Of a stretch of DNA of 64,000 bases, positions 33,180 to 34,772 are shown piece after piece. A program made the position numbers and the translations under genes. This DNA is from Escherichia coli (GTDB taxonomy: Bacteria > Pseudomonadota > Gammaproteobacteria > Enterobacterales > Enterobacteriaceae), in assembly GCF_024502345.1 (NCBI RefSeq), contig NZ_JALDNN010000001.1; one strand, given 5' to 3'. The notes beneath the pieces are model-generated. The model was not told the origin of the DNA. It ran no database searches and saw only the letters and a program-made list of their open reading frames with translations. Numbering within the stretch: position 1 is the stretch's first letter; each line of letters starts with the position of its first letter.

Positions 33180-33590
33180 ATGTCCAGACCAACTATCATC
33201 ATTAACGACCTGGATGCCGAACGCATCGATATTCTGCTGGAGCAACCCGCCTATGCTGGTTTGCCAATCGCCGACGCGTTAAACGCAGAGTTGGATCGCG
33301 CCCAAATGTGTTCGCCAGAAGAGATGCCACACGACGTGGTGACAATGAACAGCCGGGTTAAATTCCGCAATCTTAGCGATGGCGAAGTGCGTGTGCGCAC
33401 GCTGGTGTATCCGGCAAAAATGACCGATAGCAATACTCAGCTTTCCGTTATGGCTCCGGTAGGTGCCGCACTGCTGGGACTGCGCGTTGGCGATTCCATT
33501 CACTGGGAACTTCCGGGCGGCGTTGCAACCCACCTTGAAGTGCTGGAACTCGAATACCAGCCAGAAGCTGCTGGCGACTACCTGCTTTAA
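33180..33590 (+). CDS. rnk: regulator of nucleoside diphosphate kinase (GreA/GreB-like)
   Basis: 136 aa [22 protein letters not shown]... Confidence 0.92.
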
Positions 33591-33727
33591 TCCCATCTGC
33601 ACAAGCGATAACTCGCTTTGCCCAGAGGATGCACTCGCATCCTCTTTACGCAAAATCAGCAATTTTTCCTGGTTCTCACTGTTCACTTTTGCTGCAAAAT
33701 TATTCCGTTTCGTTTGTGGGAATAACC

Positions 33728-33817
33728 ATGGCAGAAGCATTTTACATCCTGATAGGATTTCTGATTATGGCGGCGATTATCGTCATGGCTGTCCTTTACC
33801 TCGAAAACCACTCCTGA
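33728..33817 (+). CDS. candidate small hydrophobic protein (29 aa, single predicted TM helix)
   Basis: Hand translation MAEAFYILIGFLIMAAIIVMAVLYLENHS; weak GGGAA SD-like sequence upstream; lies inside a 62-aa track ORF. Confidence 0.3.
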   Translation: MAEAFYILIGFLIMAAIIVMAVLYLENHS

Positions 33818-33820
33818 CGA

Positions 33821-34655
33821 TCATATTGTTCCCCCCGGCATCGCATTCACCAGACCTGAAACCGCCTTCTGCGCCGCCTCTGCGCTTTGTGCACCGGGTA
33901 CCAGAATCACCTTACGGCACTCCTCTTCACGTTTTTCGAAAATCTCATATCCCCGGGCGGCCTCTTCAAACGGCATATAGTGGGTAACAATTTCTTCTGG
34001 TTTCAGTAATCCTTTCTCAATTAACGGTAATAATTCTCCCAGCCATGCGTGAACGTGGGTCTGTCCCATTTTAAACGTCAACCCTTTATCAAAGGCGTCG
34101 CCAAACAGGAAACCGTGAATAAATCCAGCGTAGACGCCCGGTACGCTAACAATGCCGCCACGCCTGACCGCCCCAATACACTGACGCAACGCTTTACCGC
34201 TGCTGCCCTCCAGTTTCAGGTTAGTCAGCACCGTTTCCGTGGTGCTGCCTTTCGCTTCAAAACCGACGGCGTCTATTACTGCATCCACGCCCCGGTGACC
34301 TGCCGTTTGTTCAATAATTGACTGTGCCGGATCGCTATCTTCATCGAAATTAATCGGGATCGCGCCGTAGCGGTCGGCGGCGAAACGCAAGCGGTAGGGA
34401 TGATGATCAACAACAAAAATCTGTTCCGCACCGAGCAACCGTGCACAGGCGATTGTCAACAATCCCACAGGACCAGCACCATAGACTGCAACGCTTGAAC
34501 CTTGTTGGATCTGCGCATTTTTTGCTGCCTGCCATGCCGTTGGCAGAATATCAGAAAGGAAAAGCGCTTTATCATCTGCAAGCAAAGGCGGTACTTTAAA
34601 CGGCCCCACATTCCCTCTAGGGACGCGGACATATTCCGCCTGCCCACCATGTTCA
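33821..34655 (-). pseudogene. ybdR: 5'-truncated Zn-dependent alcohol dehydrogenase family gene (Rossmann and C-terminal part only)
   Basis: 262-aa ORF retains the GAGPVG NAD-binding motif and C-terminus but lacks the N-terminal catalytic domain; homology stops at an in-frame TAA about 45 nt upstream and AT-rich sequence follows. Confidence 0.7.
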
Positions 34656-34772
34656 GTGAGAATATATTAATCACAGAAACCGTTTGTAAGGAAAAAGAAC
34701 CAGACAAATATCAGGGATAAATATTATAATCATGGTGAATGATTTGTTCATGATTAACAGGGAGAAAGGGTT

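Follow-up and report, generated by a model that had tools for sequence, protein, structure and literature searches.

YoaI, a small protein of the inner membrane under the control of PhoB, binds the sensor kinase EnvZ and activates it (Vellappan et al., PMC11429745). It is found in the membrane fraction, and a C-terminal GFP fusion fluoresces, which places the C-terminus in the cytoplasm. Binding to EnvZ was seen in a two-hybrid assay, and YoaI stimulates EnvZ-OmpR reporters. The residues S26, V27 and E31 of YoaI are described as invariant, and replacement of the last of these by alanine or glutamine (E31A and E31Q) abolishes both binding and activation of EnvZ. Overexpression of YoaI delays growth, and an effect that is independent of EnvZ has also been reported (PMC11429745).

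The second gene of concern here, yldA, was named by VanOrsdel et al. (2018; Proteomics 18:1700064, PMC6001520), who provided 80 short ORFs of E. coli MG1655 with a chromosomal C-terminal SPA tag and obtained a specific immunoblot band for 36 of them. YldA was among these 36 detected small proteins. In the literature that we searched, neither a published function for YldA nor a published experiment on its localisation, topology, partner or phenotype was found. A statement of any link between YldA and YoaI was likewise not found in that literature, and both the YoaI paper (PMC11429745) and a 2025 review (PMC12648545) are without mention of YldA.

In this report, we describe the yldA locus in a window of Escherichia coli DNA (the whole stretch of 64,000 nucleotides that was analysed) and compare it with the corresponding loci of other Enterobacteriaceae and with YoaI. 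The explanation that we consider best, with a probability of roughly 85%, is that yldA is a real gene for a protein of little more than one transmembrane helix, homologous to YoaI and probably a modulator of a larger membrane protein. Since the gene is already named and annotated and its product was detected in 2018, its recovery here is a rediscovery and not a new gene; the residual novelty of the case is the link between YldA and YoaI.

A sequence-only reading of this DNA had proposed a micro-protein of 29 residues, encoded by an ATG-initiated ORF between rnk and ybdR. The coordinates, the translation and the flanking genes were all confirmed from the sequence. The features of the locus are listed below, with the evidence for each in brackets.

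33180 to 33590, + strand: rnk, the upstream co-directional neighbour and synteny anchor
33599 to 33621 and 33624 to 33645, + strand: two hairpins in the rnk 3' region (fold and alignment)
33718 to 33721, + strand: Shine-Dalgarno-like GGGA, 6 nt before the yldA ATG (sequence, and same position in most orthologues)
33728 to 33817, + strand: yldA coding sequence (sequence, RefSeq WP_000796528.1, Pfam and NCBIfam matches, identity to YLDA_ECOLI, SPA-tag detection, conservation and pN/pS)
33737 to 33802, + strand: predicted transmembrane helix, codons 4-25 (mean Kyte-Doolittle value 2.71; the conserved face is residues 16-26, the C-terminal half)
33803 to 33814, + strand: predicted cytoplasmic tail, codons 26-29, ENHS (invariant Glu26, aligned with Glu31 of YoaI)
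33821 to 34648, - strand: ybdR, convergent, a 5'-truncated pseudogene here (blastn against the reference locus L001)

The coding sequence extends on the + strand from an ATG at 33728-33730 to a TGA at 33815-33817 and comprises 29 sense codons, translated as MAEAFYILIGFLIMAAIIVMAVLYLENHS. A megablast search of positions 33500-34000 against 5,426 complete E. coli genomes returned the RefSeq label "yldA: small membrane protein YldA" at 33728..33817, and yldA is annotated by RefSeq at the same position in thousands of E. coli genomes. The peptide matches the Pfam family PF23689 (YldA-like) with 73.6 bits (cut-off 27) and the NCBIfam equivalog NF041476 (YldA) with 57.9 bits (cut-off 45), in both cases over residues 1-29 of 29. 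An exact look-up identified the UniProt entry YLDA_ECOLI as the identical sequence, and the peptide is the same as the entry in Table 1 of VanOrsdel et al. 2018 (PMC6001520). In comparison with E. coli K-12, the gene itself has the same sequence and occupies the same slot between rnk and ybdR. It is therefore practically certain that the ORF is yldA and a genuine translated gene. What had been offered as a possibly coding micro-protein has thus turned out to be an annotated gene with a conserved frame and an SPA-tagged product detected by immunoblot, and epitope tagging at the native locus, which the sequence-only reading had suggested as a check, had already been published with a positive outcome (chromosomal SPA tag, PMC6001520).

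A longer version of the same frame was also considered and rejected. The ORF list gives 33629..33817, corresponding to 62 residues, because the listing begins at the first in-frame ATG, at 33629. This start lies inside a conserved hairpin of rnk, and the extension is not conserved in frame, because the length of the spacer between rnk and yldA varies (129-313 nt).

The Shine-Dalgarno-like GGGA of yldA has a calculated anti-SD duplex energy of -4.2 kcal/mol. The ribosome-binding site had been called weak, and this judgement held in part: the sequence is only modest, but it lies near the median of the 58 large ORFs of the window (-3.75 kcal/mol at the first ATG of each, a crude comparison set), and of random 20-mers 83% are weaker and only 17% reach its strength. 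Most of the orthologues described below carry an SD-like run at the same position, mostly GGGGA, which is weaker or absent in a few of the 36 loci; their median anti-SD energy is -7.45 kcal/mol.

Conservation of yldA was assessed in a comparative set of 82 loci, consisting of 80 rnk-anchored loci from different species of Enterobacteriaceae and, for reference, the E. coli loci L001 and L002, whose small ORFs were searched by HMM; being anchored on rnk, this search covers yldA copies near rnk only. A YldA-like ORF on the strand of rnk was found in 36 of the 82 loci, and every one of these 36 begins with ATG and has exactly 29 codons. It mostly starts about 130-150 nt after the rnk stop codon, and 233-313 nt after it in two loci with insertions. 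In the rnk slot, the gene occurs in Escherichia, part of Citrobacter, Enterobacter, Lelliottia, Leclercia, Phytobacter, one Kosakonia and Pseudenterobacter. In the other 46 loci, the small-ORF HMM search of the slot between rnk and uspG did not find yldA beside rnk; among them are those of Salmonella arizonae and diarizonae, the C. freundii group, Kluyvera, most Kosakonia and Trabulsiella. To judge from this distribution, many relatives can do without yldA. A 3' remnant is all that is left of the gene in one E. cloacae genome (locus L033).

The pattern of substitution within the gene is that expected of a coding sequence under constraint. Among 36 distinct yldA sequences, pairwise differences per site average 0.277 at the first codon position, 0.215 at the second and 0.517 at the third, and the pooled pN/pS in the yldA frame is 0.385. 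Four of the five control frames give pN/pS values of 1.14-1.55; the fifth, an antisense frame that shares wobble positions with yldA, gives 0.51. The synonymous bias and the frame conservation that the sequence-only reading had named as a check are thus both present. The 34 distinct YldA orthologues have the consensus MxExLxITLxFLIxxAIIVxAVLYLERHW, in which M1, E3, A21, V22, L25 and E26 are invariant. Column entropy shows a much tighter constraint on the C-terminal half, with a mean of 0.47 bits over residues 16-26 against 1.64 bits over residues 4-15 in the N-terminal half.

Variation within E. coli points in the same direction. Two alleles are found, one or the other of them in 5422 of 5426 complete genomes: the first, of the window and K-12 type, accompanied by ybdR, in 3604 genomes, and the second, MSEALGITAFYIFIAAIIVAAVLYLEQRW, without ybdR, in 1818. 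The two proteins are 52% identical (pS 0.80, pN 0.36), and the DNA of the two haplotypes beyond the rnk hairpin is not alignable by blastn, but both alleles retain the length of 29 codons and the motif AAIIVxAVLYLE. That haplotypes so divergent keep both is strong evidence that selection acts on the YldA peptide, and not merely on the DNA. To judge from these sequence comparisons, yldA is a 29-codon gene under purifying selection, which about half of the sampled species of Enterobacteriaceae carry downstream of rnk.

The peptide is exceptionally hydrophobic. The sequence-only reading had pointed to an uninterrupted hydrophobic stretch of the length of a transmembrane helix, and this description is borne out by the best 19-residue Kyte-Doolittle window of YldA, which reaches 2.97; the 274 other ATG ORFs of 25-60 residues in the six frames of the window all lie below it, with a maximum of 2.41. 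The ORF is beyond chance expectation in this respect, since its hydrophobicity exceeds that of all the other small ORFs. Location in the membrane is what we infer from this prediction and from homology to the membrane protein YoaI. Lysine and arginine residues of YldA orthologues are confined to the C-terminal end, with a mean of 0 at the N-terminus and of 1.06 at the C-terminus, where a mean of 0.79 histidine residues is added. In agreement with these positive charges, and with the cytoplasmic C-terminus of YoaI, YldA would be oriented in the inner membrane with its N-terminus in the periplasm and its C-terminal tail (LERHW in the consensus, LENHS here) in the cytoplasm. The tail of the window allele, ENHS, contains no arginine, and for this allele alone the positive-inside argument is weak.

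The neighbourhood of yldA is more variable than the gene. The stop codons of yldA and ybdR converge at a distance of 3 nt, the ybdR stop being located at 33821 on the minus strand. In the window, ybdR lacks 507 bp at the junction 34649/34650 (blastn against L001), a 5' deletion by which the locus differs from that of K-12, where ybdR is without it; the ybdR of strain FDAARGOS_943 is in the same state as that of the window and is annotated as "incomplete; missing N-terminus". In the E. coli haplotype devoid of ybdR, uspG is co-directional with yldA and follows 124 nt downstream. Depending on the species, the stretch from rnk to uspG holds yldA alone, ybdR alone, both genes or neither, and as all four combinations occur, yldA is not functionally tied to ybdR.

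How yldA is transcribed was approached through the intergenic sequence. The stem of the second hairpin, GAGGATGC/GCATCCTC, is found exactly in 57 of 85 loci, some of which have no yldA, and both hairpins between rnk and yldA belong to rnk and not to yldA. Only a short T run follows them, and they were not called as intrinsic terminators in a scan of the window, the alternative E. coli haplotype and Lelliottia. A search of the same three sequences upstream of yldA gave no sigma-70 consensus promoter, inspection by eye gave no convincing PhoB box upstream of the gene, a promoter scan found no antisense promoter-like site over yldA, and positions 33400-34000 gave no match to an Rfam RNA at E values up to 1. 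Because the rnk hairpins lack a U-tract, read-through from rnk is possible; a promoter that is non-consensus or dependent on an activator is the other possibility. Published work gives two signs that yldA is transcribed: the pair ybdR-yldA figures in a list of convergent excludons as one seen in at least 50% of the RNA-seq samples (PMC12288877), and yldA stands in a Table 2 just before the heading "Downregulated genes (Cluster 5)", and is apparently up-regulated (PMC10100675). Cluster 6 of the latter study is made up of 100 genes that NaF induces in a dose-dependent manner, alongside genes of envelope stress, of osmotic stress and of phoPQ/rstAB.

Apart from its own families, YldA matches a single other one, NF041475, the YoaI equivalog. 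The score of the window peptide is 22.5 bits (E 8.7e-5), below the cut-off of 45; all 34 distinct YldA orthologues match the model, with a best E value of 1.2e-8, and all remain below the cut-off, the highest scores being about 35 bits. YldA would thus be a homologue of YoaI and not its equivalog. Alignment of the YldA profile with YoaI (YOAI_ECOLI) by hhalign gave a probability of 91.5% and an E value of 8.7e-7 over 27 gapless columns, in a register that pairs YldA 2-28 with YoaI 7-33. In this register, S26, V27 and E31 of YoaI are aligned with A21, V22 and E26 of YldA, all three of which are invariant in YldA. The identity of YoaI to the YldA orthologues is 28-48%.

Two short hydrophobic helices can also resemble each other by convergence, and shuffled versions of YoaI were used as a control for hydrophobic composition. 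Against the YldA HMM, YoaI scores 18.9 bits, a value reached by none of 20,000 shuffles of the whole sequence and by 3 of 20,000 shuffles of the core in which the termini were kept; the Pfam YldA model gave no match to E. coli YoaI. A profile combining YldA and YoaI, searched against 1.84 billion representative proteins, retrieved 67 clusters only at E values up to 0.001. Some of the sequences retrieved bridge the two families: P0078 (...MNDPAFFDTLCITAVFLVIASALVMSVLYLERRW), P0089 and P0091 combine an N-terminus of the YoaI type with a C-terminus of the YldA type, VLYLERRW/H. P0078, which has a precomputed Pfam YldA match, is neighboured by DUF441, tRNA_edit, NUDIX, DUF444 and PrkA genes. We take this neighbourhood to be the counterpart of the yeaL/yeaK/yeaH/yeaG region around yoaI in E. 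coli, where yoaI lies, in K-12, between yeaK and yeaL. Taken together, the profile matches, the alignment and the bridging sequences make it very probable that YldA is homologous to YoaI, in a shortened form.

Several other readings of the locus have to be weighed against that of a YoaI-like modulator. Were the ORF a chance intergenic one, its peptide functionless and its translation noise, a modest Shine-Dalgarno sequence in the window allele, the failure to find a consensus promoter and the absence of the locus from many relatives would all be natural; such an ORF would not keep 29 codons in 36 of 36 loci, concentrate its variation at third positions, show a pN/pS of 0.385 against more than 1.1 in four control frames, or persist with its C-terminal motif in two E. 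coli haplotypes whose flanks cannot be aligned, nor do the immunoblot detection and the outlying hydrophobicity fit. The probability of this reading is next to nothing, and for practical purposes the pattern of conservation, together with the tagging result already published, refutes it. The same purifying selection on amino acids, especially in residues 16-26, also speaks against the idea that the peptide is irrelevant and that it is the translation or transcription of yldA that matters, as a leader or uORF for uspG or by interference with ybdR. The position of yldA 124 nt upstream of co-directional uspG in the ybdR-less haplotype would suit a leader, and the head-on convergence with ybdR in the K-12 type, with 3 nt between the stops, would suit interference; yet a pure leader would not need a conserved peptide, the same peptide family occurs at an unrelated locus (YoaI), and yldA and ybdR occur in all four combinations. 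We regard this reading as very improbable. Much the same holds for a membrane-damaging peptide resembling the type I toxins (cf. TisB, DinQ, Ibs, Ldr and ShoB) and repressed by the convergent ybdR antisense transcript. YldA is a short, hydrophobic peptide, the excludon list has the yldA transcript overlapping that of the convergent ybdR, and overexpression of its homologue YoaI delays growth. However, tagged YldA accumulates in normally growing cells and is tolerated at its native level, and yldA is kept in about 1818 genomes of E. coli, and in many species, that lack ybdR and hence that antisense partner. Moreover, neither an antisense promoter nor an Rfam sRNA was found over yldA, and the gene is single-copy at a fixed syntenic position. 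Type I toxin loci are often repeated.

The main alternative would make YldA not a modulator of a sensor kinase but a stoichiometric accessory subunit, or a stabiliser, in a complex formed by a transporter or an enzyme. Pairs of this kind are AcrZ-AcrB, KdpF-KdpABC, CydX-CydAB and MgtS-MgtA. The evidence for a conserved single helix fits such a role equally well, many bacterial small membrane proteins bind transporters or oxidases (PMC12648545), and the EnvZ-independent effect of YoaI implies a further target even for the paralogue. Against it, no transporter or oxidase operon adjoins yldA, whose neighbours are rnk, ybdR and uspG and which occurs with or without ybdR, and the only homologue that has been characterised targets a histidine kinase by means of a residue that is invariant in YldA. 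An accessory subunit is thus possible, though we would not expect it.

In the reading that we prefer, that of a YoaI-like membrane modulator, YldA would be a minimal bitopic inner-membrane protein consisting of little more than one transmembrane helix, a homologue of YoaI five residues shorter. It would probably dock onto a larger inner-membrane protein through the conserved half of the helix that lies in the cytoplasmic leaflet and through the invariant Glu26, which would be the counterpart of YoaI Glu31, needed by YoaI to bind and activate EnvZ. Everything in this picture beyond "translated and conserved" is what we infer, and its parts differ in strength. By analogy with YoaI and other bacterial small membrane proteins, YldA is rather likely to be a modulator or a subunit of a larger membrane protein; that this partner is a histidine kinase, EnvZ or another, is a much more tentative proposal. 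Equally speculative is the full form of the model, in which YldA and YoaI constitute one small enterobacterial superfamily of minimal proteins with a single helix and YldA is a second connector of the YoaI type. Through Glu26 it would bind a sensor histidine kinase (EnvZ or other) in its cytoplasmic or membrane-proximal part, and so tune a two-component system when the cell is under stress of an envelope, osmotic or ionic kind.

The case is a positive control, in that a genuine small membrane protein was recognised from raw sequence. In addition, homology to YoaI turns YldA, a protein of unknown function, into a specific and cheap functional lead. Experimental confirmation of the link would provide a function for YldA and a second member of a family of kinase-connector micro-proteins.

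The mode of action proposed for YldA, binding of a tiny bitopic protein to a histidine kinase, is that of MgrB with PhoQ and of the larger proteins MzrA and SafA (PMC11429745, PMC12648545). YldA has no sequence relationship to MgrB, MzrA or SafA, and the comparison is one of analogy only; MgrB, moreover, acts through its periplasmic part, whereas YldA is essentially without periplasmic residues. With YoaI, the likeness extends to the sequence. Both proteins have a single transmembrane helix, a glutamate ahead of it (E3 in YldA, E8 in YoaI) and a C-terminal tail of the L-E-R type, and V22 and E26 of YldA correspond to V27 and E31 of YoaI. The two differ in that Ala21 of YldA replaces the invariant Ser26 of YoaI, that YldA, with 29 residues, lacks the first five, periplasmic N-terminal residues of YoaI (34 residues, NF041475), and that yldA is located between rnk and ybdR or uspG, unlike yoaI.

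Escherichia coli carries yldA, which encodes a predicted small membrane protein and in the window lies between rnk and ybdR, as one of two alleles, K-12-type versus a second allele with just 52% identity to it. The locus is dimorphic as a whole: the K-12-type allele together with ybdR is present in 3604 E. coli genomes, and the other allele without ybdR in 1818. The region compared was as follows:
Window 33652-34755 versus 6153-6429 of the second E. coli reference locus (L002): haplotype comparison region.
From the rnk hairpin to the uspG promoter region, no blastn alignment between the two haplotypes was obtained. The second allele is common to E. albertii, E. marmotae and Escherichia clade strains, and the nearest relative of the K-12-type peptide is YldA of the Citrobacter amalonaticus group (72-76%). 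The dimorphism, the unalignable DNA and these allele relationships suggest that K-12-type strains acquired their yldA-ybdR segment from outside, by recombination.

Presence and absence of yldA and ybdR occur in all four combinations in the rnk-uspG slot of 80 rnk-anchored loci from other Enterobacteriaceae (region about 3400-5000), and in E. cloacae DSM 26481 yldA is reduced to a 3' remnant (L033, 3473-3511). The slot is a small gain-and-loss hotspot. In the window, yldA is untouched by a deletion in its neighbour:
Window 33821-34770: region of the ybdR remnant (- strand), a 5'-truncated pseudogene, and of its deletion junction at 34649/34650.
Compared with E2863, K-12 and similar strains, the window lacks 507 bp at this junction. 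The deletion has cost ybdR about 137 codons from its N-terminal end, along with the region upstream of the gene. The gene is in the same truncated state in E. coli FDAARGOS_943, where it is annotated as 'incomplete; missing N-terminus', and is full-length in most ybdR-carrying genomes, in which the blast match falls into two pieces spanning the junction.

Two features lie upstream of yldA or extend it in that direction:
Window 33599-33621 and 33624-33645: hairpins 3' of rnk.
Window 33629-33817: extended yldA ORF of 62 aa, from mechanical ORF lists.
The 33624-33645 hairpin has an 8-bp stem, GAGGATGC/GCATCCTC, identical in 57 of 85 loci from many genera, with a variable loop; in C. amalonaticus (L017) two copies (3445, 3608) stand on either side of an insertion of about 170 bp. 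It is followed by just about three T residues and received no intrinsic terminator call. For a plain terminator, a stem that is invariant instead of covarying is unusual.

The extended 62-aa ORF starts at an in-frame upstream ATG within this hairpin (AGAGGATGC), and some database entries of 33-169 aa (e.g. P0013, P0061 and P0067) are over-extended forms of this kind or frameshift fusions with rnk. These longer forms were rejected as isoforms and are regarded as annotation artefacts. A further long form is a fusion:
L083 2501-2704: P0046, a 67-aa ORF on a metagenome scaffold.
In it, codons 1-19 of the alternative E. coli allele run on into K-12-type sequence, namely the upstream region and the complete yldA. 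Since the fusion is known from a single 4-kb metagenome scaffold only, it is either a recombinant of the two E. coli haplotypes or an assembly chimera.

Comparison with YoaI, the 34-aa proposed homologue, drew on a combined YldA/YoaI profile search, which included:
L084 3001-3138: P0078, with a Pfam YldA match.
P0078, P0089 and P0091 combine a YoaI-type N-terminus with a YldA-type C-terminus (VLYLERRW/H), and the neighbourhood of P0078 is yoaI-like (DUF441, tRNA_edit, NUDIX, DUF444 and PrkA). By sequence, these three proteins form a bridge between the YldA and YoaI families.
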